IMG/VR virus record: IMGVR_UViG_2541047705_000005
DNA: 17,849 bases
Source: a virus
Lineage: Duplodnaviria > Heunggongvirae > Uroviricota > Caudoviricetes
Reading direction: 5' to 3' (one strand)
Numbering within the stretch: position 1 is the first letter of the stretch; every line of letters starts with the position of its first letter. Shown piece by piece: positions 1,369 through 17,849 of the stretch. Position numbers and translations under genes: made by a program. The notes under the pieces were generated by a model. The model did no database searches and was not told the DNA's origin. It was given only the letters and a program-made list of their open reading frames with translations.

Positions 1369-1444
1369 GCCGATATAGCTCAGTTGGTAGAGCAGCGCAT
1401 TCGTAATGCGAAGGTCGTAGGTTCGACTCCTATTATCGGCACCA
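1369..1444 (+). tRNA. thrW: tRNA-Thr (anticodon CGU)
   Basis: 76-nt sequence GCCGATATAGCTCAGTTGGTAGAGCAGCGCATTCGTAATGCGAAGGTCGTAGGTTCGACTCCTATTATCGGCACCA: acceptor stem, D-loop AGCTCAGTTGGTAGAGC, anticodon loop with CGT, T-loop GGTTCGACTCC, encoded CCA; sits just downstream of proA as thrW does in E. coli. Confidence 0.93.
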
Positions 1445-1457
1445 TTCTAATGTCTCC

Positions 1458-1610: not shown

Positions 1611-2825
1611 GTGAAACTCAATGCCCGTCAAATAGACACTGCCAAGCCAAAAGAGAAGGCTTACAAGCTGGCTGATGGTGGTGGTCTGTATCTCTTGGTA
1701 AAACCTAGTGGAGGAAAATATTGGCGCTTCAAGTATCGTGTAGCTGGTAAAGAGAAGCTGTTAGCACTAGGTGTGTATCCTGAAGTTACCTTGGCTGATG
1801 CTCGTGCAAAACGTGAAGAAGCTAAAAGGGGTATCGCTGGGGGTATCGATCCGATGGAAGCGAAACGAGAGGAAAAGATTGCCCGGGAAACGCAGTTAAA
1901 CAACACCTTCAAAGATATTGCCCTTGAGTGGCACAGCAGCAAATTAAAAAAATGGTCTGCTGGTTATGCTTCAGACATCCTCGAAGCCTTCAACAAAGAT
2001 GTGTTCCCTTACATTGGCAAAAAACCAATCGCCGAAATCAAACCACTTGAACTGCTGAATGTGCTGCGGCGCATCGAGGGGCGCGGTGCTACCGAAAAAG
2101 CCAAAAAAGTGAGGCAGCGATGTGGGGAAGTTTTCCGCTATGCAATTGTCACTGGACGTGCTGAGTATAACCCTGCACCGGATCTCACCAGCGCGATGCA
2201 AGGTCATGAATCTAATCATTATCCTTTCCTCACAGCCAAAGAATTACCTGATTTTTTCAAGGCATTGTCCAGTTACTCAGGAAGTGCATTGGTTGTTATG
2301 GCGGCTCGTTTACTGATTATCACCGGTTTGCGGACTGGCGAACTGCGCGGTGCATTATGGGATGAAATCGATCTCAACAAGGCTATCTGGGAGATACCTG
2401 CTTCACGGATGAAAATGCGTCGCCCTCATGTAGTGCCTTTGTCTGAGCAGGCTCTTTCGCTTATTGGGCAGATTAAAGAACTAACTGGCAATTATCCGCT
2501 TATGTTTCCCGGCCGTAATGATCCAAGGAAAACAATGAGCGAGGCTAGCATAAACCAAGTATTTAAACGCATCGGCTATAACGGAAAGGTTACTGGTCAT
2601 GGCTTCCGGCACACTATGAGCACCATTTTGCATGAGCAGGGCTATAACACCGCGTGGATAGAGACACAGCTTGCGCACGTTGATAAAAACTCAATTCGTG
2701 GCACATACAACCATGCGCAATATCTGGATGGGCGGCGGGAAATGCTTCAGTGGTACGCTGATTATATGGATTCGCTCGAGCATGGCGGAAATGTGGTGCA
2801 TGGTGAGTTCGGAAAATGCGGGTGA
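1611..2825 (+). CDS. int: Tyrosine site-specific recombinase, P4-like integrase family
   Basis: 404-aa ORF starting MKLNARQIDTAKPKEKAYKLADGGGLYLLVKPSGGKYWRFKYR (typical P4-family N-terminus); C-terminal catalytic region with ...HGFRHTMSTILHEQGY... (H-x-x-R) and ...LAHVDKNSIRGTYNHAQY (catalytic Tyr region). GTG start at 1611 preceded by GGAGG; adjacent to a tRNA gene. Confidence 0.9.
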   Translation: MKLNARQIDTAKPKEKAYKLADGGGLYLLVKPSGGKYWRFKYRVAGKEKLLALGVYPEVTLADARAKREEAKRGIAGGIDPMEAKREEKIARETQLNNTFKDIALEWHSSKLKKWSAGYASDILEAFNKDVFPYIGKKPIAEIKPLELLNVLRRIEGRGATEKAKKVRQRCGEVFRYAIVTGRAEYNPAPDLTSAMQGHESNHYPFLTAKELPDFFKALSSYSGSALVVMAARLLIITGLRTGELRGALWDEIDLNKAIWEIPASRMKMRRPHVVPLSEQALSLIGQIKELTGNYPLMFPGRNDPRKTMSEASINQVFKRIGYNGKVTGHGFRHTMSTILHEQGYNTAWIETQLAHVDKNSIRGTYNHAQYLDGRREMLQWYADYMDSLEHGGNVVHGEFGKCG

Positions 2826-3978: not shown

Positions 3979-4176
3979 ATGTCAAATACGCTTATTCGTT
4001 TAACAGAAGTTCAGCGTAGAACTGGATATAGCAAGGCATGGATTTATCGCCTTATGGGGCAAGGTAAATTTCCTGCATCAGTTAAAATTGGCTCGCGAGC
4101 TATTGCTTTCGTTGAGAGTGAAATTGACGAGTGGATTAATCAGCGTATTGCGGAATCACGCGGAACAGCTACCTGA
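3979..4176 (+). CDS. alpA: AlpA/Vis-family prophage transcriptional regulator (small HTH protein)
   Basis: 65-aa protein MSNTLIRLTEVQRRTGYSKAWIYRLMGQGKFPASVKIGSRAIAFVESEIDEWI, the characteristic AlpA pattern; GAGGT RBS; position after int is typical for P4-like elements and Gram-negative PICIs. Confidence 0.8.
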   Translation: MSNTLIRLTEVQRRTGYSKAWIYRLMGQGKFPASVKIGSRAIAFVESEIDEWINQRIAESRGTAT

Positions 4177-4253: not shown

Positions 4254-5054
4254 ATGAAATTTCCAAAAACGCCCGTACAGGGGCGGGGCTTCGTTCGGCC
4301 TGAAAACCAGAATCTGCAAAATTTCGGCGAAATTATCCCGATTATTTCCGGCGTTATTGGCGGGAGTGAAACCACTATTGTTAGCGCCAGAGCGTTACAT
4401 AAGGCGTTAGGTGTAGGGCGCGTTTTCCGTTCGTGGATCAAGGGGCGCATTGAAGAATATGGGTTCACGGAAGGCGTGGATTATGAGGTTGTTGAATATT
4501 TGAGCCGACCCGATCCGGTGAGCGCAAAATCTCGCCAGCAAACCGCTCTTGAGTACATCATCACAGTGAACATGGCGAAAGAACTGGCGATGGTCGAACG
4601 TACCGAACAGGGCCGCGCCGTTCGCCAGTACTTTATCAAATGCGAGGAGGAGCTACACAAGGTTGCGCCTGTTCGTTCCGCAGCGTTACGCCGGGAACTG
4701 AAAGCCCGTATCACAGTTGCCAGCTACTTTAAGCCAATGTGTGCCGCGCTGGAGGCGTACCGGGCTGAACTGGGTAAAAACACACTCCAGCACCACTACA
4801 CCACGGAAGCGAACATGCTGGCGCGTATCGTGCTGGGTGGCATGACTGCAAAACAGTGGGCACTGGCGAACGGCATTACAGGCGAACCACGCGACCACAT
4901 GAGCACGTTGCAGCTTGAGCACCTTTCTTACCTTGAGCAGAGCAATATCACGCTGATTGAGTTAGGCCAGGACTACCACCAGCGGAAGGCTGAATTAATT
5001 CGTCTTTCGCAGCGTTGGTTAGCCCGTCGCATGGAGGAAAACAGCCATGTGTAA
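4254..5054 (+). CDS. Phage antirepressor-like protein (AntA/AntB-type N-terminal domain)
   Basis: 266-aa ORF; N-terminal SARALHKALGVGRVFRSWIKGRIEEYGFTEGVDYEV and later ITVNMAKELAMVERTEQGRAVRQYFIKCEEEL resemble antirepressor motifs as I recall them; AGGAG RBS 6 nt upstream. Family assignment is from memory, not a search. Confidence 0.55.
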   Translation: MKFPKTPVQGRGFVRPENQNLQNFGEIIPIISGVIGGSETTIVSARALHKALGVGRVFRSWIKGRIEEYGFTEGVDYEVVEYLSRPDPVSAKSRQQTALEYIITVNMAKELAMVERTEQGRAVRQYFIKCEEELHKVAPVRSAALRRELKARITVASYFKPMCAALEAYRAELGKNTLQHHYTTEANMLARIVLGGMTAKQWALANGITGEPRDHMSTLQLEHLSYLEQSNITLIELGQDYHQRKAELIRLSQRWLARRMEENSHV

Positions 5055-5771
5055 CGCTCTGACCGTTACAAAAAGAGAAAGCGCCCCGTTGCCGGAGCGC
5101 CTTTGTGAACGAATAGCCTACTGCGCCATATTGCTTACTGTCTACGAGGCAGATTATAGCGTTGTGGTCGCACAGAGTGAAGGCGCTGATCACCGTTACT
5201 ACAGCACGCCAGAAATGCAGAATATTTTGCTGCAAAATGTCGTTGGTCACACTGTCCGGAAAGCAAAAAATTTTGCTGGTGGCGCGACTGATGCGATTTT
5301 GTCAGGTCGCCAGGTGCTGATCAATCTGATGTCTGATTTCGTTCTGGATAAAACAAAGGCGACCGCAGAGGGCCGCCAGTGGGAAAGCTACATACTTGAA
5401 CGCATCGCCAACAATGCCAGATTTGCGGCTGGTGGGCAATGTGTCAGCTTTGCACCAATGACTCTATGTTTAACTGAGGGTCATTATGGTGAATATGCTG
5501 GCTTGCTGGTGGGCTATTCCTGCTCTTTAACATTGCCATGCCGCGATGTTTTCCAGGTATGCGACCCCATTTTTGTGCACCTGTACTCTTTAAGGAATTT
5601 CTCAAGGACAAACGCACAGGGCGCGAATCTGTCTGACTCATGCTCGTACGCTATCTTTCTGCGCTGTCTTTTCCGTGCCGGTGATGGTGTATTGGTTGAT
5701 TCTTTGTTGGTCATGGCGCTGCCCTGTAAAATAATGCACCGTAGTTCCTCACACCACGGCACCTATAGTGG

Positions 5772-6044
5772 TTATTCCTGCTCTTTAGCTTTGCGCCGCT
5801 GGAGTTCTTCACGCGCGACGGTGACGAGTTGCCCGATTTCCTCGGCAGCTTTGACTCCGATTTTTTCCACCTGCGCTAGGGCATCGAGCGAAGAAACCAG
5901 GGGATTTTCTCCGCTTCCTTCTGCCTGGCGGCGGGCGATTTCACCGCGAACGGCTGTAATCACGAAAGCGGCTATTGTTTCCCCTTCCGTTTTCGAATTT
6001 TCCATTTCCTCGATTACATCATGGGGGAAGCGGATATTTTTCAT
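5772..6044 (-). CDS. Putative ribbon-helix-helix (CopG/Arc-like) DNA-binding protein, divergent from the replication operon
   Basis: Minus-strand ORF (track 5772..6077); internal start gives MKNIRFPHDVIEEMENSKTEGETIAAFVITAVRGEIARRQ, which fits the RHH N-terminal beta-strand/helix pattern. No clear SD for either start, so the start is uncertain. Confidence 0.45.
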   Translation of the reverse strand: MKNIRFPHDVIEEMENSKTEGETIAAFVITAVRGEIARRQAEGSGENPLVSSLDALAQVEKIGVKAAEEIGQLVTVAREELQRRKAKEQE

Positions 6045-6168
6045 TTGCGATCTGCTGTTGATGTTTCCTGTTGCCATCAGAATGTCCGGTTATTTTGAGG
6101 TGTGTACACATTACACCAAAAGGTGTGTTGATAAAACACTTGACACTGTAGCACACTTAAATTTAATT

Positions 6169-6201
6169 TGTATATACACCAATTGTTGTGGTGTATATAC
6201 A
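6169..6201. promoter_or_regulatory. Perfect 12-bp inverted repeat TGTATATACACC-N9-GGTGTATATACA (candidate operator) in the divergent intergenic region; a TTGACA hexamer lies at 6140-6145
   Basis: Read directly; lies between the minus-strand RHH ORF and the plus-strand operon starting at 6268. Confidence 0.45.
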
Positions 6202-6267
6202 GCAACGCCCCGCAGTGGTGGCACACATGCAGGGCGTCTAACCAAACCGTTAAACGAGGTAACGATT

Positions 6268-6633
6268 ATGGCTGGAACACAGCATACCCAAACTCACCCT
6301 AAATTTATATACACCTTCCTGGCGGTGCACCGTGATTGCATTGCTGACGGTAAAAACACTGTACACGTAGCCGCCGATACGCTGGTTGATGCCTGCGAGA
6401 TGCTCAATGACATGGGCTATATCTCGGCAACATGGAAAGGGCGCGAAGAAAACACGCTGTTTATTCAGAAATGCGAAAACAATTTTATCTGGCGTTTTAT
6501 CGCCCTGAGTACGGCACAACCGCGCGTGATTCACATCGAGGCCACCAGCGAACAGGAAGCACGCCAGCAATCTCCTGATGGCTGCGTGATGGTATTCGCT
6601 GCCCGTATTCGCCAGGAGGTGGAGCATGTGTAA
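6268..6633 (+). CDS. Hypothetical protein (first gene of replication-module operon)
   Basis: ATG at 6268 preceded by GAGGT; it is the 3' part of the stop-free track ORF 5047..6633; the stop overlaps the next start (CATGTGTAA junction). Confidence 0.6.
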   Translation: MAGTQHTQTHPKFIYTFLAVHRDCIADGKNTVHVAADTLVDACEMLNDMGYISATWKGREENTLFIQKCENNFIWRFIALSTAQPRVIHIEATSEQEARQQSPDGCVMVFAARIRQEVEHV

Positions 6634-7631: not shown

Positions 7632-7922
7632 ATGAAAAAGAAAAATTCTGGCTTTACTGCCAGCGGCCTCTCTCGGCCTGAAATCCGCCCCGGTGATATT
7701 TTCCGGGACACCAGACGCGGGGGACGGGTGGTTATTCGTCACGTTACGCCAGGCAATATCACCTACCGCCGTGAGGCTTACGAATATGACTGCGTAATGC
7801 CGCGCCGTCAGTTTGAGCGTGATTTTATTCTGGTGGAAAACAAACAACAGGCAGTGGCGAGACGTGCAGCCACGAATATTAAAAAAATCCGGGCAATGTT
7901 GGTTGCGGGAGGTAAGAAGTGA
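7632..7922 (+). CDS. Hypothetical small basic protein
   Basis: 96-aa ORF; its stop overlaps the GTG start of the primase-like gene. Confidence 0.5.
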   Translation: MKKKNSGFTASGLSRPEIRPGDIFRDTRRGGRVVIRHVTPGNITYRREAYEYDCVMPRRQFERDFILVENKQQAVARRAATNIKKIRAMLVAGGKK

Positions 7923-9724
7923 AAAACGCACCGAATTTAAAATATCAGCCGAAGGATAAATTCACCGAGGTAATCATTTTTGCCGGGACGGATGCTTACG
8001 CCCATGCTCAACACTGGATTGAAAGCGAAGGACGAAAACACGGCGATAACGTGCCTCCTGTTTACCTGGGGCCAAAGCAACTGGCAGACCTGGCGAATAT
8101 CCGCATTGTCGACGATGAACGTCGCTTTGCGCGTGTCTATCTCGCGGGGGAGATAGAGCCAATCCAGATCAATGCTATTGCTGAAAAGCTGGCGCTGGCT
8201 GGTGTACAGGACGCGAAATTATACAAAGGTATCACCGACCGGGAGCCGGAAAACTGGCGCGACTACCTGCAACGGATCCGCGAACAGGCAGAGAGTGGGG
8301 AAGTTTCAGCGATGAAATTAGCCACAAAAAATATTGACCTATCCAGGCCAGCACTAAATCAGATGGGAGCCAGCCAGAGAGGGGAAGTGTTACTTGAATA
8401 TTATGGAAGAGCACTGGCTATAAATGATGATTCTGATGTAGTTCACCATTACAACGGAATTGTCTGGGTGCCTGTATCTGATAAGGAACTCCAGCGGTCT
8501 ATGGCGAAGATTTTTATTGATGCTGGAATCAGTTATTCGCAAAACGCCATTAAATTTGCCGTAGACACAATGAAATTGAGCCTGCCTGTTATGGGCGGGG
8601 CAGACAGGAATCTTATTGGATTCAGTAACGGGGTATTTGATACCCGGACGGGAAATTTTCGGGAGCATAACAAAAATGACTGGTTGTTAAATGCCAGTGA
8701 ATTACCGTTCAGCCCACCAGCAGAGGGGGAAACGCTGGCAACACATGCGCCGAATTTCTGGAAGTGGCTGCGTCGTTCGGTGGCAGATAATGAGCGTAAA
8801 GCTGATCGCGTACTGGCGGCATTATTCATGGTACTGGCGAACCGGTACGACTGGCAGTTATTCCTTGAGGTAACAGGCCCAGGCGGAAGCGGTAAAAGTG
8901 TGATGGCTGAGATTTGTACCATGCTGGCGGGTAAGGCCAACACAGTATCGGCAAGCATGAAGGCTCTGGAAGACGCAAGGGAACGCGCGTTAGTAGTTGG
9001 CTTTTCGCTGATTATCATGCCGGATATGACTCGCTACGCTGGCGATGGTGCAGGAATTAAGGCAATTACTGGCGGCGACAAGGTGGCAATTGATCCGAAA
9101 CATAAAGCCCCCTACTCCACACGTATTCCGGCAGTAGTGCTTGCGGTAAACAATAACGCCATGTCATTCAGTGACCGAAGCGGGGGGATCTCGCGTCGTA
9201 GGGTGATATTTAATTTCTCTGAGGTCGTACCGGAGAACGAACGCGATCCCATGCTGGCGGAAAAGATAGAAGGCGAACTGGCGGTAGTGATTCGCCATTT
9301 GCTAACACGATTTACCGACCAGGACGAAGCTAAAAGACTACTTTATGAGCAGCAAAAATCAGAAGAAGCGCTGTTGATAAAGCGCGAAGGTGATTCACTG
9401 GTGGACTTTTGCGGCTATCTGATGTCGTTGGTTAAATGTGAAGGAATGATGGTGGGCAATGCGGAAATAGTGCCATTTAGCCCGAGGCGATACCTGTATC
9501 ATGCTTATTTAGCCTATATGTCAGCGCATGGCCTGGGAAAACCAGTATCACTGACACGCTTTGGTACTGATATGCCAGGAGCTATGGCGGAATACGGAAA
9601 GGAGTATAAGCGGGCTAAATGCACTAAAGGCCCGGATAAAGGGCGAGTGATAACAAATGTTCTGTTAGATGATGATGCTGATGGCTGGTTGCCAGCAGCT
9701 ACAGGGATTAACGACAGAACATAA
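7919..9724 (+). CDS. Primase/helicase-like replication initiator (P4-alpha / D5-type NTPase family)
   Basis: 601-aa ORF, GTG start after GGGAGGT; Walker A P-loop LEVTGPGGSGKSVMAEI in the C-terminal half; last gene of a coupled operon and followed immediately by an iteron array, as expected for satellite pri/rep genes. Confidence 0.75.
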   Translation: MKNAPNLKYQPKDKFTEVIIFAGTDAYAHAQHWIESEGRKHGDNVPPVYLGPKQLADLANIRIVDDERRFARVYLAGEIEPIQINAIAEKLALAGVQDAKLYKGITDREPENWRDYLQRIREQAESGEVSAMKLATKNIDLSRPALNQMGASQRGEVLLEYYGRALAINDDSDVVHHYNGIVWVPVSDKELQRSMAKIFIDAGISYSQNAIKFAVDTMKLSLPVMGGADRNLIGFSNGVFDTRTGNFREHNKNDWLLNASELPFSPPAEGETLATHAPNFWKWLRRSVADNERKADRVLAALFMVLANRYDWQLFLEVTGPGGSGKSVMAEICTMLAGKANTVSASMKALEDARERALVVGFSLIIMPDMTRYAGDGAGIKAITGGDKVAIDPKHKAPYSTRIPAVVLAVNNNAMSFSDRSGGISRRRVIFNFSEVVPENERDPMLAEKIEGELAVVIRHLLTRFTDQDEAKRLLYEQQKSEEALLIKREGDSLVDFCGYLMSLVKCEGMMVGNAEIVPFSPRRYLYHAYLAYMSAHGLGKPVSLTRFGTDMPGAMAEYGKEYKRAKCTKGPDKGRVITNVLLDDDADGWLPAATGINDRT

Positions 9725-9751: not shown

Positions 9752-10090
9752 GGTAGACGGTTGGTAGACAGATTCACTTAACCCTCTACCAACCATCTAC
9801 CAATTAATATTTTGAATTATAAAGATATTTTCAATGTGGTAGAGAGGTAGACAGTTATTTCTATATTCCTACACCACGGGGGGTATATAAAAAACAGATA
9901 GTTAAGGGGGCATTTTTTAAATTTCTCTTTTAACTGTCTACACTGTCTACCATTTAGTAAAAATCATTAATTATCAATGTATTAATGCGGTAGACCGTTG
10001 GTAGACAGTTTGCAGATTGTTTTTTTGTTATGTGTTAATAACATTAAATAAATCAATCAATTATATCGGTAGACAGTTGGTAGACAGTTG
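9752..10090. repeat. Iteron array: six copies of a ~20-bp unit GGTAGAC-N3-4-GGTAGACAG in both orientations (9752-9773, 9784-9801 inv, 9838-9856, 9933-9951 inv, 9989-10010, 10068-10090) separated by AT-rich spacers; putative replication origin
   Basis: Read directly; iterons plus AT-rich spacers immediately downstream of the primase/helicase-like gene match origin architecture of P4-like satellites and PICIs. Confidence 0.5.
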
Positions 10091-10095
10091 TAACG

Positions 10096-10638
10096 ATGGG
10101 GCAAAGCATGACTAAGCTGACCATTAACAGAAAACCAAAAGGTATTTACGGCACGCCGCAGAAAACGACGCAGGCGGCGCAGCAGCAGGATAAAACCACA
10201 TCGGCGCATAAAGTGATGCCCGGTAACCAGAAAGCGCAGCAGAAGCCCACAGGGGCAACACCGTGGCGGCATATGACCAAACGGCAGCGAAAAAACCGCA
10301 GACGCGTTAACCGCCTCACTGAGTTGTGGCCTGAATTATTCAGCCGGGAAGCACCGAAGCCGCTTAAGGTGGGGATATTCGACGACCTGATGCAGGATCT
10401 CGCCGTCAGGGGGCTGGCATTCGGGCCAGGGGCATTGCGTGCGACGCTGGCATCTTATGCGCAGTGTCCGCGCTATTACCGCGCCTTAATGGCTGGTGGG
10501 GTACGCTACGACCTGAAATGCCAGCCGTGCGGCGAGGTGACACCACAGGAACAACAGGACGCAGAAACGCGGCTGGTTGCGCTGAATGAGAAACGCAAAC
10601 GTCAGCGTCGGGCAGCAAAGGAGAAAACAGGCGCATGA
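10096..10638 (+). CDS. FinO/ProQ-domain RNA-binding protein (RNA chaperone-like)
   Basis: 180 aa; PLKVGIFDDLMQDL...LRATLASYAQCPRYYRAL...GVRYDLKCQPCGEV parallels the ProQ N-terminal domain (PLKIGIFQDL...LRSALRLYTSSWRYL...RVDLDGNPCGEL) as I recall it; start could be 10096 or 10108. Confidence 0.75.
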   Translation: MGQSMTKLTINRKPKGIYGTPQKTTQAAQQQDKTTSAHKVMPGNQKAQQKPTGATPWRHMTKRQRKNRRRVNRLTELWPELFSREAPKPLKVGIFDDLMQDLAVRGLAFGPGALRATLASYAQCPRYYRALMAGGVRYDLKCQPCGEVTPQEQQDAETRLVALNEKRKRQRRAAKEKTGA

Positions 10639-10922
10639 TTCACGACAGCAAAGCGGAAGCTCTGGAAGCGCGTGGTCTGTACCGGAGAGCGGCGGCGCGG
10701 TGGGCTGAGGTCATCATGCTGGCGAATGATGACAAGGCACGGGAGCAGGCGGCAAAACGTCGCGCGGAATGTATCCACAAGGCAGCACGCCCACCAGCAA
10801 GGCAGGATAATTTCGGGGAGATGCGCAAAACCATCAGCCGGGCACATGCCGGGATGGGATTACATCAGCCCAATGGTGAGGCATTCAGGAAATACCAAAA
10901 AAAGAACAATTGTAGTCAGTAA
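10635..10922 (+). CDS. PerC-family transcriptional regulator-like protein
   Basis: 95 aa; N-terminus KAEALEARGLYRRAAARWAEVIM matches my recollection of the PerC-family signature; ATGA overlap with the FinO/ProQ gene. Family call is from memory. Confidence 0.5.
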   Translation: MIHDSKAEALEARGLYRRAAARWAEVIMLANDDKAREQAAKRRAECIHKAARPPARQDNFGEMRKTISRAHAGMGLHQPNGEAFRKYQKKNNCSQ

Positions 10923-11056
10923 CAGAGGATGGGATTCTCTTGGTTTTTTGTTGATGCTTTCTGAGGAAATCTACTACGTTGCTGAGCAGATGAATATTCA
11001 ATTGCATCTGGGTTCCTGATAAGATTAATCTGAATATTTTCATTTGGAATAGGGAT

Positions 11057-13400: not shown

Positions 13401-13928
13401 ATGTTGATGAGTAAAGCCGAATACGCCAAATACAAAGGCGTAAGCCGCCAGACAGTTTACGACTGGCTCGAGAAAGGCGAAGTGGTCATGTCCGGTAAAA
13501 AAATTGATGTGGAAGCGACAGAGCAGCGGAACAGCCCACCAGCACAGGGGAAAGACACCATTTCTGAAATGTGGCCAGAAAGAACGCTGGAAATGACATG
13601 GGGCGAGTTCTGGAAAGCAGTTAAGGCCAGAGACGGTAAAATTCCTGCGCCAGTAACGGACGAGGGCATACAGCAGCATGTGCTGTATGCAGCCGGGGAA
13701 TTAGGCTGGGAAGTGCACTTTCTTGATGATGGTGCTATCTGTCTTGAGGATGATGAAGGGCAGCATTACTTTGAAAAATACAATTTGCGAGGTAATGCCA
13801 GGCTGGCAATTCGTATGCTGCGTTGCGAACTCTGCTATGTTGCCAGCGATTGTCCCGATGAACAGGACACATGGAGTGAGGCAGGACTAAACGCCTTGGC
13901 TGAATGGGAAAAATCAGGCCATCAATGA
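13401..13928 (+). CDS. HTH DNA-binding protein with Nu1/TerS-like N-terminal pattern; candidate packaging-redirection (Rpp-like) or regulatory protein
   Basis: Track ORF 13383..13928; I prefer the ATG at 13401, 7 nt after GAGGTGA. N-terminal MLMSKAEYAKYKGVSRQTVYDWLEKGEV resembles the lambda Nu1 wHTH pattern (KKQLADIFGASIRTIQNWQEQG) in spacing of conserved positions; followed by a dense repeat array. Confidence 0.55.
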   Translation: MLMSKAEYAKYKGVSRQTVYDWLEKGEVVMSGKKIDVEATEQRNSPPAQGKDTISEMWPERTLEMTWGEFWKAVKARDGKIPAPVTDEGIQQHVLYAAGELGWEVHFLDDGAICLEDDEGQHYFEKYNLRGNARLAIRMLRCELCYVASDCPDEQDTWSEAGLNALAEWEKSGHQ

Positions 13929-14750: not shown

Positions 14751-15977
14751 ATGATTGCAGGCGCGAAAAGAGGGAGAAACGAACGCAAGGGGCTTCACTC
14801 TTGGCATCCATACTATGCGGGCTATTCAGAGTCATTTGTGGCTTCTGTTTTGCAGGCTGAAGGAGTTAAGTCGTCCGCTACCGTTCTTGATCCTTGGATG
14901 GGAAGCGGTACCACTGGTATAGTTTGTCAAAAGCAAACCATAAAGTGTATTGGAGCAGATATTAATCCTGTAATGAGCTATTTTGCTGCAGCCAAAAGTA
15001 GGGATAATATTTCAGCGCTGGATTATACCGGAGAGCAACTCCTGGAAAGGATACTGCTTTGCTTTAGAAAAAAAACAAAAGATATAACTGAGTCATCGAA
15101 GGGCTATCCACTTATTGAACAGTTACAAAAGTTTTATAAATGTATCTGTGATCAGTTTATGGATAAAGGACAAAATGATATCGTAAATCCTTTAAAAGCA
15201 TTTTATTGCAGTGTTTTATTTTATACTGTTCGCAATGTCCTTGATGTTAGGTCAACTTCAAATCCTACATGGATTTCTAAAAAAGTAGACTTTAATAATA
15301 AATTTGATATTTGTTTTGAATATAATAAAAATTTTAAAATTATGCGTGAGCAGTTAAGTGAATATTATGGCAGCGCTAATGGGGGGGCATGTTACTCGAT
15401 TTTAAACGTGGATAGTAAAAAATTAAATATTAAAAGTAACACAATTGATCTTGTTATTACATCGCCACCGTATTTAACACGAATAGACTATGCCGTTTCT
15501 ACTCGTCTTGAGTTGGAAATAATTTTAGGGAGTGAGGGATATAAGTCTCTTAGAAAGGAAATGATGGGCACGACGACTGTGCCTAAAGTTGCGGATGAAA
15601 TTAATAAAAAATGGGGGCCATTGTGTATGGATGTTTTGTCATCGGTAACATCGCATACATCAAGAGCATCTGGAAGTTATTACCTTAAAAATAAAATTAG
15701 ATATTTTTCTGATGCGTATGAGTCATTAATGGAAATCTTTAGAGTTTTAAAGGTAGGTTGCTCTGGTTATTTTGTAATACAAAATTCATATTATAAGGAA
15801 ATAGAGATTCCGCTTTATGATATTTATTGTGAAATGGCGCTTTCTATTGGGTTTTCAGAAGCGAAATGTGTGAGAGAAGATCAAGTTAAAGCAATATTTG
15901 GACAAATAAATACCAAGTCAAAAAATTATATTAAAGATAAAGTTTATTTTGAAAAAATCATAAGGATAACAAAATGA
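14751..15977 (+). CDS. DNA methyltransferase (amino-methyltransferase: N4-cytosine or N6-adenine), motif I before motif IV
   Basis: 408 aa; SAM-binding motif I VLDPWMGSGTTG (14889-14918) and catalytic motif IV SPPY in DLVITSPPYLTRIDYA (15462-15473); AT-rich codon usage; stop overlaps next start (ATGA). Confidence 0.8.
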   Translation: MIAGAKRGRNERKGLHSWHPYYAGYSESFVASVLQAEGVKSSATVLDPWMGSGTTGIVCQKQTIKCIGADINPVMSYFAAAKSRDNISALDYTGEQLLERILLCFRKKTKDITESSKGYPLIEQLQKFYKCICDQFMDKGQNDIVNPLKAFYCSVLFYTVRNVLDVRSTSNPTWISKKVDFNNKFDICFEYNKNFKIMREQLSEYYGSANGGACYSILNVDSKKLNIKSNTIDLVITSPPYLTRIDYAVSTRLELEIILGSEGYKSLRKEMMGTTTVPKVADEINKKWGPLCMDVLSSVTSHTSRASGSYYLKNKIRYFSDAYESLMEIFRVLKVGCSGYFVIQNSYYKEIEIPLYDIYCEMALSIGFSEAKCVREDQVKAIFGQINTKSKNYIKDKVYFEKIIRITK

Positions 15978-17086
15978 ATGACGTAACTAAATTGCTATCT
16001 CAGATAGATGAAAAAAGAGATGAGGTAGTAACTGATTCTTATACCATATCATGGCGTGAAGTAATTAATCTATATAAAGAAAATGAGATAACCATTTCTC
16101 CAGACTACCAAAGGCTTTTTCGTTGGGATAACGCAAGACAAAGCCAATTTATCGAGTCATTACTTTTAAATATACCTACGCCAACACTTTTTTTCTACAT
16201 TGATAATAATGGTAAGCAGGAGGTTATCGATGGATTGCAACGTGTGAGTACTATAATTAGATTTTTTTCAGAGGATATTTTTAATAAGGAAGAAATAGAT
16301 AATGCAAAGAAACAAAACTCTGTAAATGATGTCCGTAATCCAACTGTTCTTGATGATGTGCCTATAATTACAGAATTAAATGGATGGACTGCAAAAGGAT
16401 TGCCGGACAAAGTTAGCCGAACTATAAAAAATGCGCGAGTAAATGTTGTTATTTTGGAGCAAGAAACAAAACCTGAAACTAAATATAATGTTTTTAAACG
16501 ACTGAATAGGTCTGGTGTTCGTTTGAGTGACCAGGAAATACGTAATTGCATGGCTAGATTAGCAGGGAATGAATTTGCAGATCGCTTACGTAAGATGGCC
16601 GAAATTGATGGTATTGTTCAAGCTCTTGGAATAAATGAAGATGGCCAAAAATCTCAAGGTGTTGAGGAAGCTTTGCTACGAGTTATGGCATCTTTGACTT
16701 ATGCGGATAAATTTAGCCATAGTGTAACTGACTTTTTGGATGAATTTATGTTCTACGCGGCAGAACATAATGTTATTGATATTAATTTTGAATTAAAAAT
16801 AAAAAGAACTTTTGATTTGATAAATATTGCTGGTTTATCTGGTAAAGCATTTAAATTTAGAAAGGATGGTGCTCCAAGTGGCCCGTTTAGTACTAATTTA
16901 TTAGATGTTGTTGCTGTTGGTATTTTTAGTAATGTAGATAATTTAACACCTGCTGAGGTGGCGAAAAGATTTGATTATTTAATGGATGGTGAGATCAAAG
17001 AATTAAGAGCTTGTACTGGTTCTGGATCTAATACTAAAGCCAAATTAGAGAAAAGAATCGCTCTTGGGAAGAAGGTGTTTGGATAA
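15974..17086 (+). CDS. DUF262 (ParB/Srx-like NTPase domain) protein, stand-alone (no DUF1524/HNH domain evident)
   Basis: 370 aa; N-terminal signature PDYQRLFRW...IESLLLNIPTPTLFF...VIDGLQRVSTII (DGQQR-type motif, 16229-16243); AAGGA RBS; translationally coupled to the methyltransferase. Confidence 0.8.
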   Translation: MNDVTKLLSQIDEKRDEVVTDSYTISWREVINLYKENEITISPDYQRLFRWDNARQSQFIESLLLNIPTPTLFFYIDNNGKQEVIDGLQRVSTIIRFFSEDIFNKEEIDNAKKQNSVNDVRNPTVLDDVPIITELNGWTAKGLPDKVSRTIKNARVNVVILEQETKPETKYNVFKRLNRSGVRLSDQEIRNCMARLAGNEFADRLRKMAEIDGIVQALGINEDGQKSQGVEEALLRVMASLTYADKFSHSVTDFLDEFMFYAAEHNVIDINFELKIKRTFDLINIAGLSGKAFKFRKDGAPSGPFSTNLLDVVAVGIFSNVDNLTPAEVAKRFDYLMDGEIKELRACTGSGSNTKAKLEKRIALGKKVFG

Positions 17087-17087
17087 A

Positions 17088-17849
17088 ATGAGAATATCAG
17101 ATTTCGATGATTTCAAGGTGATGTTGGAAAAGACGAAAAATGAAAGTCTTGGATTCCTTGAGAGCATAAAGTCTATTAATGAGTTTATGTCGAGATCAGG
17201 TGATAAAGACAAGGAGGATATGTTTAGAATAATATCGGTCCCAATGATTTATTCTTCTTGGGAGGGTTTTTTTACTGAAACAATGTCAGTTTGCTTAAAT
17301 ACATTGAAACTCTCAGATAGAGAAGCATTTAGATACTCTGCAGAAATTCGAGCACTTTGGTTGCAACGAGAACCATTTTATAGCAAGTATGTAGATATGA
17401 TAAAAAATATTTATGATGCTGACTCACACCGAAGCATTGTCCATAATGGCGCCCAAATAAAAAAGAAAGTTACGAAGGGGGCGTTTAAACTAACAAGTGA
17501 GGTAATTCAACACATTGACAGGTTTAATAAATCCACATTATCAGATTGCGATGTTTCTGAATTAGTTATGACATTTTCCAATGTGAATGAAATGGTTGTC
17601 AAGGTGAATTTCGATGCTATAGGTTTGGATTATTCATTACTTGATTTATCGCAACTAGGTGAGGTTGTTGGCCTTAGAAATTCTTTGGGACATGGGGAGT
17701 TTAAAAGTAGTGTTAACCCTAGGAAATTTAATTCAATAATTGTGTATGTGGAAAATCTGATCATCGATTTGAATCAATGTGCTATAACGTGGTTGGATAA
17801 ATTAGAAGATGAAATAACTAAGCCTGAAGATAATGAGACTATTCAGTGA
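17088..17849 (+). CDS. Predicted all-alpha protein with C-terminal Rx4H motif (LRNSLGHGEF); putative HEPN-domain RNase effector
   Basis: Track ORF 17064..17849 uses a TTG; I prefer the ATG at 17088, 10 nt after GAAGGTG. R-N-S-L-G-H at 17676-17693 fits the HEPN Rx4-6H motif; stop TGA is the last codon of the window. The HEPN call rests on motif and composition only. Confidence 0.5.
   Translation: MRISDFDDFKVMLEKTKNESLGFLESIKSINEFMSRSGDKDKEDMFRIISVPMIYSSWEGFFTETMSVCLNTLKLSDREAFRYSAEIRALWLQREPFYSKYVDMIKNIYDADSHRSIVHNGAQIKKKVTKGAFKLTSEVIQHIDRFNKSTLSDCDVSELVMTFSNVNEMVVKVNFDAIGLDYSLLDLSQLGEVVGLRNSLGHGEFKSSVNPRKFNSIIVYVENLIIDLNQCAITWLDKLEDEITKPEDNETIQ

Follow-up and report, generated by a model that had tools for sequence, protein, structure and literature searches.

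A FinO/ProQ-domain protein and a PerC-family regulator form a putative exchangeable cassette in PICI-type satellites of Escherichia coli

We identified, in a PICI-type satellite of Escherichia coli, a pair of overlapping plus-strand genes encoding a FinO/ProQ-domain protein of 176 aa (10108..10638) and a PerC-family protein of 95 aa (10635..10922). Comparison of related loci indicates that the pair is a promoter-less cassette, swapped as a block among satellites with different integrases and primases. The window analyzed is the whole stretch of 17,849 nucleotides, and all coordinates refer to it. FinO-domain proteins are one of the three main bacterial RNA-chaperone classes. Both gene annotations were already known (the RefSeq labels are 'ProQ/FINO family protein' and 'PerC family transcriptional regulator'), as were PerC genes in PICIs and one ProQ/FinO gene in a PICI; a 2026 survey listed a ProQ/FinO-like gene, without analysis, in one Enterobacter PICI (PMC13612085). 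What is new is the behavior of the pair as a shuffled, translationally coupled cassette and the distinction of its first product from FinO, FopA, and ProQ. A full-text literature search returned no functional work on a satellite FinO-domain protein and no experiment on any member of this subfamily.

The window is 100% identical to the chromosomes of several E. coli isolates. It starts with proA, followed by thrW, a tRNA-Thr (CGT) gene (1369..1444, plus strand; ARAGORN and Rfam) that is the integration site. The attL core, CTCCTATTATCGGCACCAT, begins at 1427 and is the 19-nt 3′ end of the tRNA; the same core is found again as attR at window-equivalent position 18213 in the identical locus of E. 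coli E189, so the island measures ~16.8 kb and extends slightly past the window end. The island tyrosine integrase (1611..2825, plus strand; Pfam Arm-DNA-bind_3, Phage_int_M, and Phage_integrase) is followed by an int-alpA RNA motif (2870-2937; Rfam) and an AlpA-family regulator (3979..4176, plus strand; PF05930, E 2.4e-19). In the model island EcCICFT073, AlpA acts as the activator of the PICI and switches on its downstream genes when the helper is present (PMC6092414). Next come an AntA/B antirepressor gene, two minus-strand genes (one of the YlcI/YnfO family), an Icd-like gene with several small ORFs, a DUF4222 gene (7632-7922) and, directly after it, the D5/P4-type primase-helicase gene pri-rep (7919..9724, plus strand; Pfam D5_N, DUF5906, and Pox_D5; NCBIfam primase_Cterm). 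Related islands often have isrK and C4 antisense RNAs ahead of the Icd-like gene, a place taken in the window by a strongly structured leader (6166-6270; z -4.2), the first hairpin of which is a perfect 14-bp palindrome. A gene-free stretch of 370 nt separates the primase gene from the FinO/ProQ gene. After the PerC gene lie a lipoprotein gene and further small genes, and distal to these a methyltransferase/DUF262/HEPN defense module. A 175-aa HTH protein encoded at 13401-13928 matches a small terminase at its N-terminus (phrog_57, E 5e-6), the one feature of the island that hints at packaging by a helper phage; as a candidate Rpp (packaging redirection) it was rejected, with a marginal N-terminal likeness to RppA (E 0.06) and no PDB match.

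This architecture bears out the view, part of the original prediction, that the genes are satellite-encoded. The int, alpA, and pri-rep genes occur in this order, ahead of an origin whose iterons flank an AT-rich region; the att site is at thrW, with 19-bp direct repeats ~16.8 kb apart; family-profile searches detected no phage structural or lysis genes in the island, and it has no tra genes. Gram-negative PICIs have been recognized by the int/alpA/pri-rep order, an iteron origin, a specific att site, a size of ~12-17 kb, and the absence of structural and lysis genes (PMC6092414), and the satellite label is therefore justified for the host element, judged by its architecture. The putative replication origin (9752..10089) is made of GGTAGACNGTTGGTAGACAG iterons, set in tandem and inverted pairs to either side of an AT-rich stretch, as is the layout of PICI origins (PMC6092414). 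Eight of the nine copies of GGTAGAC in the window fall within 9752-10085; the chance expectation is 0.87 per whole window, and nine copies were reached in none of 200 shuffles. The final iteron ends 22 nt 5′ of the FinO/ProQ start codon, in agreement with the predicted position of the gene right after the iteron array. One weak promoter match lies within the origin, at 9840-9867.

Two plus-strand ORFs with an ATGA overlap had been described, of 180 aa (10096-10638) and 95 aa (10635-10922), and both are present. The length of the first needs revision: the 180-aa ORF exists, but the true start is most likely the ATG at 10108, which gives 176 aa, with the ATG at 10096 as an upstream alternative. 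This choice follows from the RefSeq start (10108), from the N-termini of the homologs (an M-x-x-LTI block beginning at 10108 is found in all 18 aligned homologs, 16 of which start with it), and from the shared DNA homology, which begins at 10092-10099, at the GGGG ribosome-binding site (10099..10102, plus strand).

As anticipated, the product has a ProQ/FinO-like core. The HMM search proposed at the time matched PF04352 with an E-value of 2.9e-22 and 79.1 bits (cut-off 27) over residues 68-172, spanning model positions 5-108 of 109. In the predicted protein, residues 1-50 are disordered and basic, residues 58-73 form a basic helix, the FinO core takes up ~66-145, and a long basic helix (146-174) makes up the C-terminus. 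Its first 70 residues are indeed basic and of low complexity, with a pI of 12.0, 18 K+R vs 1 D+E, and 38 of 70 positions taken by Q/T/P/G/A/N/S. The AlphaFold model has a pLDDT of ~90 across residues 55-170, and Foldseek matched it with a probability of 1.00 to FinO 1dvo (E 4e-7), 3mw6, 7rgt, 7rgu, and 6s10; the best structural matches are FinO (1dvo), NMB1681, and RocC, the last also in its complex with a terminator hairpin (7rgu). A profile of the 18 homologs, compared with the PDB, gave the N-terminal domain of ProQ (5nb9, 3e-19), FinO (1dvo, 8e-16), and RocC (7rgt, 1e-12), as well as the Lpp1663 and NMB1681 structures. Among these homologs, Y123 is nearly invariant and R133 invariant; they are the equivalents of ProQ Y70 and R80, the importance of which has been stated (PMC7491321). 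K87, equivalent to ProQ K35, is invariant, and K84 and R111 of the window protein align with ProQ R32 and R58. Sequence, predicted fold, and RNA-contact residues together identify the product of 10108-10638 as a genuine FinO-domain protein for which RNA binding is predicted, and by the same residues and model its RNA-binding surface appears intact.

The protein does not fall into a characterized class of the family. It scores 61.1 bits against the NCBIfam FinO model NF010317 (cut-off 136) and 53.4 bits against the ProQ model NF003434 (cut-off 127). The FinO_N domain (PF12602), present in pMAR2 FinO, was not detected by Pfam in the window protein, nor does it have a ProQ-type C-terminal domain, as it ends in a helix after the FinO core. 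The closest characterized core is that of F-plasmid FinO (33% identity over 106 aa, 56 bits, hhalign probability 98%), and the profile alignment with FinO is confined to residues 66-160. Assignment to FinO sensu stricto was rejected on the sub-cut-off score, the missing PF12602, and the location in a chromosomal island; ProQ on its sub-cut-off NCBIfam score and the missing Tudor-like C-terminal domain; and FopA (pCol1B9) on a similarity restricted to the core (29% identity over 112 aa, 32 bits). Among 1.84 billion representative proteins, searched exhaustively, 4199 belong to the FinO superfamily and only 19 of these have E < 1e-30, which points to a narrow clade. On sequence grounds, the window protein is thus placed in a distinct, narrow, island-borne FinO-domain subfamily that is neither FinO proper, nor ProQ, nor FopA.

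The second gene proved PerC-like over its full length: PF06069 was matched with an E-value of 3.8e-32 and 110.8 bits (cut-off 22.6) over model positions 1-89 of 90. Its product shares 43% identity with EPEC PerC and 52% with EcCICFT073 PerC. A single-sequence AlphaFold model predicts a four-helix protein; it has no significant PDB match and no recognizable DNA-binding fold, and a sequence search of the PDB gave no match either. The PerC ATG (10635-10637) overlaps the FinO stop codon TGA (10636-10638), and this ATGA arrangement marks PerC as translationally coupled to the FinO gene, as read from the sequence.

To compare genomic contexts, ~90 loci with a relative were collected from IMG/VR, from look-ups of encoding contigs, and from two further Escherichia species; synteny rests on the IMG/VR loci, the encoding-contig look-ups, and RefSeq E. 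coli. In the loci collected, the FinO gene is always found just downstream of the island primase and origin, and in 31 of 60 distinct alleles it is immediately preceded by an SSB gene, usually ~36-40 nt away. PerC-like sequence occurs within ~400 nt in 49 of the 60 alleles. A PerC-family gene is directly downstream in 42, and 36 have the identical 4-nt overlap, so that the predicted coupling to a PerC-like regulator is conserved across islands; a PerC-like remnant lies 320-360 nt downstream in 5, and PerC is upstream, in the order SSB-PerC-FinO, in 2. The other 11 alleles are without PerC, and those examined (L058 in detail) have an 82-aa ORF and HK97-type capsid genes after the FinO gene; since these capsid-forming islands do without PerC, the two proteins need not act together. 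More distant relatives (E ~1e-27 to 1e-34) are arranged as primase-FinO-PerC or primase-SSB-FinO-PerC with other primase types, and in one of them FinO and SSB-PerC are 3 kb apart.

The flanks of the pair are mosaic. Integrases are 25-100% identical while the FinO genes are 76-100% identical, and the primases beside the cassette are of the D5, DUF927, or Toprim-DUF927 type. In the large majority of related loci, the homology block begins at 10092-10099, at the ribosome-binding site, which forms the left edge of the cassette; it ends either at the FinO stop (10632) or after the T-run past PerC, at 10936-10951 (23 loci). The right boundary is a weak terminator-like element (10924..10949, plus strand), a 7-bp hairpin (AGAGGAT-GGG-ATTCTCT) followed by TGG and six Ts, which folds no better than shuffled sequence (z -0.04) and is absent from the terminator-scan list. 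These boundaries delimit a promoter-less unit, ribosome-binding site-FinO-PerC-(weak terminator), that recombines between satellites; with its own ribosome-binding site at the left edge, the block brings along no RNA element from further upstream. In the same pairs, PerC is far more diverged than FinO, which indicates that the internal junction is a further site of exchange, where PerC alleles recombine independently of FinO. Both genes are under purifying selection, with dN/dS values of 0.17-0.28 for FinO, 0.12-0.49 for PerC, and mostly 0.17-0.32 over both genes.

The cassette is widespread in E. coli. A sensitive DNA search found some part of it in 1871 of 5426 complete genomes, approximately a third, and at least 80% of it in 239 of 5426. 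Nearly all of the places found in E. coli are chromosomal (2656/2658). The isolates come from many hosts, and the cassette was also found in E. ruysiae, E. albertii, Citrobacter, and Salmonella. Many of the weaker matches that cover FinO only come from other genomic islands, where the copies are truncated or frameshifted and lie beside YagK/YfjJ-type genes. Plasmid and phage collections contain only distant relatives (at most 41% identity) plus one frameshifted copy in a 17.8-kb record. The subfamily is common in E. coli and confined to integrative islands.

The explanation we favor, with somewhat more belief than doubt, is that the coupled FinO-PerC cassette is expressed by read-through from the AlpA operon, with the FinO protein acting on terminator-type hairpins and PerC on transcription. 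Having no promoter of its own, the cassette would depend for transcription on read-through from the rightward (replication) operon that AlpA controls; the terminator scan found no strong plus-strand terminator between the primase gene and the cassette. Against this stands the weak promoter match at 9840-9867, as transcription might also start within the origin. Induction of the island by a helper phage would then lead to the synthesis of both proteins, a timing that we infer from the gene layout. The FinO domain would bind the stem-loop base and 3′ tail of a terminator-type hairpin on one or a few RNAs, which may come from the island, the helper phage, or the host, and would stabilize the bound RNA or promote its pairing, while PerC would act on transcription in parallel. 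Precedents for such stabilization or pairing are FinO with FinP/traJ, FopA with Inc/repZ, and RocC with RocR (PMC9977716, PMC7491321).

A partner RNA was not identified by Rfam, synonymous-site, hairpin, or terminator searches. Rfam, at gathering and E-value thresholds, reported only tRNA-Thr and int-alpA in the window, neither of which is universally linked to the cassette. C4 and isrK were rejected as partners, as some related islands carry them whether or not the FinO gene is present, and the window has neither. A scan of synonymous diversity along the FinO gene gave no clear trough that would suggest an embedded antisense gene, and the minus-strand terminator-like matches at 10316-10300 and 10160-10147 have 5-bp stems and are at chance level. 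Three antisense candidates, at the antA start, 5066-5148, and 5350-5440, were likewise rejected, none being linked to the cassette; only 5066-5148 folds better than shuffled sequence (z -2.05). The most convincing minus-strand terminator-like hairpin (5103-5078, with a promoter-like site at 5181-5153) belongs to the AntA-linked segment and not to the cassette. The antisense-RNA circuit put forward in the original prediction thus gained no support, with neither a partner RNA nor an embedded antisense signal detected, and stays conjectural. To our knowledge, every characterized FinO-domain protein of a mobile element (FinO, FopA) controls a key step of that element through an antisense RNA. That the FinO-like protein is the protein half of a satellite riboregulatory switch, with PerC as its transcriptional arm, is a speculative proposal that we consider improbable.

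Although we think it unlikely, the pair might be host-directed cargo (a 'moron') that benefits the lysogen, with PerC modulating promoters of the host or of virulence genes (LEE1, for example) and the FinO-like protein acting on host sRNAs or mRNAs alongside ProQ. The cassette does lie at the border of the accessory region, before the lipoprotein gene and the defense module, and the FinO gene is dispensable for EcCICFT073. However, a conserved block without its own promoter is unlike typical morons, and matches extend to about a third of complete E. coli genomes, to many hosts, and to further species and genera; most such strains probably lack LEE. The literature treats PICI PerC genes as accessory or virulence genes, and their influence on LEE expression varies, some of them altering it (PMC6092414; PMC11773190). 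The effects of the alleles range from none to repression, and the PICI PerC alleles of CFT073 and EDL933, against a virulence role, were reported to be without effect on LEE1 (PMC11773190).

The closeness of the core to F-plasmid FinO, among characterized members, raises the question of whether the protein interferes with other mobile elements instead. It would then capture RNAs of helper phages or plasmids, for example as a surrogate FinO on FinP/traJ or on phage antisense RNAs, to the indirect benefit of the satellite or host. Anti-competitor functions are routine in satellites, and a defense module is present in this island. Cross-talk with foreign RNAs (RepX, RocRp) has been described for FinO-domain proteins (PMC9977716). 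Nevertheless, the N-terminal domain of FinO (PF12602) is missing, the FinO/ProQ protein matches no PADLOC defense family, and the idea is purely analogical, no RNA target having been identified; we regard such a role as quite doubtful.

It is very unlikely, in our judgment, that the protein is a replication accessory factor that assists SSB and primase at the origin, with primer RNA, R-loops, or single-stranded DNA as possible substrates, rather than a post-transcriptional regulator. The gene keeps an invariant place after primase and origin, in 31/60 alleles directly after an SSB gene, and the tails of the protein are strongly basic, all of which would suit such a factor; yet we know of no FinO-domain protein that acts directly at an origin, and near-identical FinO genes are found beside widely differing origins and primases, which disfavors a specific origin-protein partnership. 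FopA does control plasmid replication, though via antisense RNA (PMC9977716), and EcCICFT073 replicates without a FinO gene (PMC6092414). Finally, it is barely conceivable that the two are decaying passenger genes with no current function, as the truncated and frameshifted relatives beside YagK/YfjJ-type genes in other genomic islands might suggest, given an intact window copy, the low dN/dS of both genes (0.17-0.28 and 0.12-0.49), RNA-contact residues invariant or nearly so in 18 homologs, and a 4-nt overlap kept in 36 alleles.

Judging by the conserved FinO-PerC coupling, PICI PerC proteins may have a role in the biology of the satellite itself, beyond that of simple virulence cargo. If the riboregulatory switch were real, a stabilized structured RNA from the island, the helper, or a co-resident plasmid would set the timing of satellite induction or the interference with helper or competitor. 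This would add an RNA-based layer of control to Gram-negative PICIs, for which we know of no repressor, similar to FinO/FinP or to the CI/C4 RNAs, which provide RNA-based control in P4 and P1. Should the protein have a specific RNA ligand, phage satellites would gain their first described regulatory layer based on an RNA chaperone. If the pair turns out to be ordinary accessory cargo, a corrected and well-delimited annotation of a widespread cassette still results.

Among known systems, FinO of F-like plasmids shares with the window protein the core fold and sequence, the basic extensions flanking the core, and the encoding by a mobile element; however, it has FinO_N and sits at the end of the tra operon, whereas the window gene is on a chromosomal satellite and, unlike in FinO/FinP/traJ, no FinP-like antisense partner was found for its product. 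FopA (YafB of IncI pCol1B9), which controls plasmid replication via the Inc antisense RNA (PMC7491321, PMC9977716), is likewise encoded by a mobile element, is similar in size, has a distinctive basic N-terminus, and lacks a ProQ-type C-terminal domain. Its N-terminus is nevertheless unrelated, its context is yagA and the plasmid backbone rather than a PICI origin and PerC, and it is more distant from the window protein than FinO is. ProQ, RocC, Lpp1663, and NMB1681 share the same domain, the N-terminal domain of ProQ being the best PDB sequence match (3e-19), but ProQ is encoded by a core gene and has a linker and a Tudor-like C-terminal domain, while the window protein has neither and is accessory and island-borne.

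For PerC, the counterparts are found on a plasmid and in prophages and PICIs. EPEC perC (EAF plasmid) follows perA-perB, whereas the window perC follows a FinO/ProQ gene; PerB of perABC was considered as a diverged FinO domain and rejected (hhalign probability 0.5%), as it matches only its own Pfam family. PerB being unrelated to FinO, an equivalence of FinO-PerC with PerB-PerC is rejected. The prophage pch genes, unlike the window PerC gene, stand alone. The published PICIs EcCICFT073 and EcCIMP1 share with the window the order int, alpA, (YlcI), Icd-like, DUF4222, primase, origin, and small regulators, and EcCIMP1 also shares the thrW integration site; both have PerC-family genes, and the publications on them make no mention of a FinO/ProQ gene. 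EcCIMP1 differs in having PerC alone, far from the primase, and EcCICFT073 in having SSB-PerC at the same position, with the FinO gene missing. EcCICFT073 was induced, replicated, and transferred (PMC6092414). As it works without the FinO gene, the FinO protein is no general core regulator of PICI induction, and we infer that FinO-PerC is an optional accessory regulatory module rather than part of the core satellite machinery.

Comparison across loci placed a recombination breakpoint at the junction of the FinO and PerC genes, at window 10632-10638. Within the same pairs of islands, the divergence of PerC is far above that of FinO; between the window and the related locus L050, the PerC genes differ with a dS of 0.95, compared with 0.24 for FinO. 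In L058 (9539-12201), the SSB and FinO genes are followed by an 82-aa ORF that matches no family and then by HK97-type major capsid and protease genes, and PerC is absent. No PerC match was found after SSB-FinO in L053, L055-L066, L071, and L072. Relatives of the FinO gene that are truncated or carry frameshifts (70-77% DNA identity) were found in L109 (6992-7500) and L110 (7017-7361), which are large non-PICI genomic islands, where they adjoin YagK/YfjJ (inovirus Gp2-type) genes and are not accompanied by PerC. Among the weaker matches in E. coli, many are probably to relatives of this type.

Upstream of the cassette, an int-alpA RNA motif (RF02996) was detected by Rfam on the plus strand at 2870-2937 (45.5 bits, E = 9e-7), with the integrase gene on one side and the next gene on the other. 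This motif is also present in the related loci L023 and L047 and is missing from some of the islands carrying the FinO gene. The Icd-like gene is preceded by a strongly structured leader (6166-6270, plus strand; -39.5 kcal/mol, z = -4.2), in which 6168-6202 forms a perfect 14-bp palindrome. The isrK and C4 antisense RNAs occupy this position in other PICIs; neither was detected by Rfam at the leader in the window. The stretch at 5055-5513 contains no genes, and three minus-strand terminator-like hairpins (5103-5078, 5377-5358, and 5762-5736) lie inside it or just past it, accompanied by a 10/12 promoter match on the same strand (5181-5153). The minus strand of this stretch may encode small RNAs. 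A 528-aa plus-strand ORF at 5047-6633 was rejected as spurious; it overlaps three genes: the YlcI/YnfO gene (5772-6077, minus strand), a small gene (5514-5714, minus strand), and the Icd-like gene (plus strand).

Further downstream, 13401-13928 (plus strand) encodes a 175-aa HTH protein, of which residues 1-42 match the small-terminase family phrog_57 (E = 5e-6). Its resemblance to the N-terminus of RppA is only marginal (E = 0.06). A role in redirecting packaging is possible for this protein, and the DNA segment encoding it was found again in approximately 45 related loci. Some related islands, EcCIMP1 included, carry very large downstream genes (L005-L010, with L009 7563-10184; L002 13481-17517) encoding, for example, a lytic-transglycosylase-domain protein or a "phage DNA ejection protein", an unusual cargo for a satellite.

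The 3' end of the island (14751-17849) holds a defence-type module. Besides a type II-like methyltransferase and a HEPN-like nuclease, the latter so named in RefSeq, it contains a DUF262 protein with matches to PADLOC NsnA (E = 1e-55) and to PD-T4-2_A. Immune systems are known PICI cargo, and the module is consistent with this habit. A 19-bp direct repeat, CTCCTATTATCGGCACCAT, constitutes attL/attR, with copies at window 1427-1445 and at 20489-20507 of L001, the identical E. coli E189 locus. The latter copy is equivalent to window position 18213-18231, and the right end of the island therefore lies approximately 360 bp past the end of the window.

Unlike the window, the model island EcCICFT073 (L108, E. 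coli CFT073 1377930-1388654) does not encode a FinO-domain protein. Its gene order is primase, a hypothetical gene, SSB, and PerC; capsid-like genes and RppA come next. The PerC of this island is 52% identical to that of the window.
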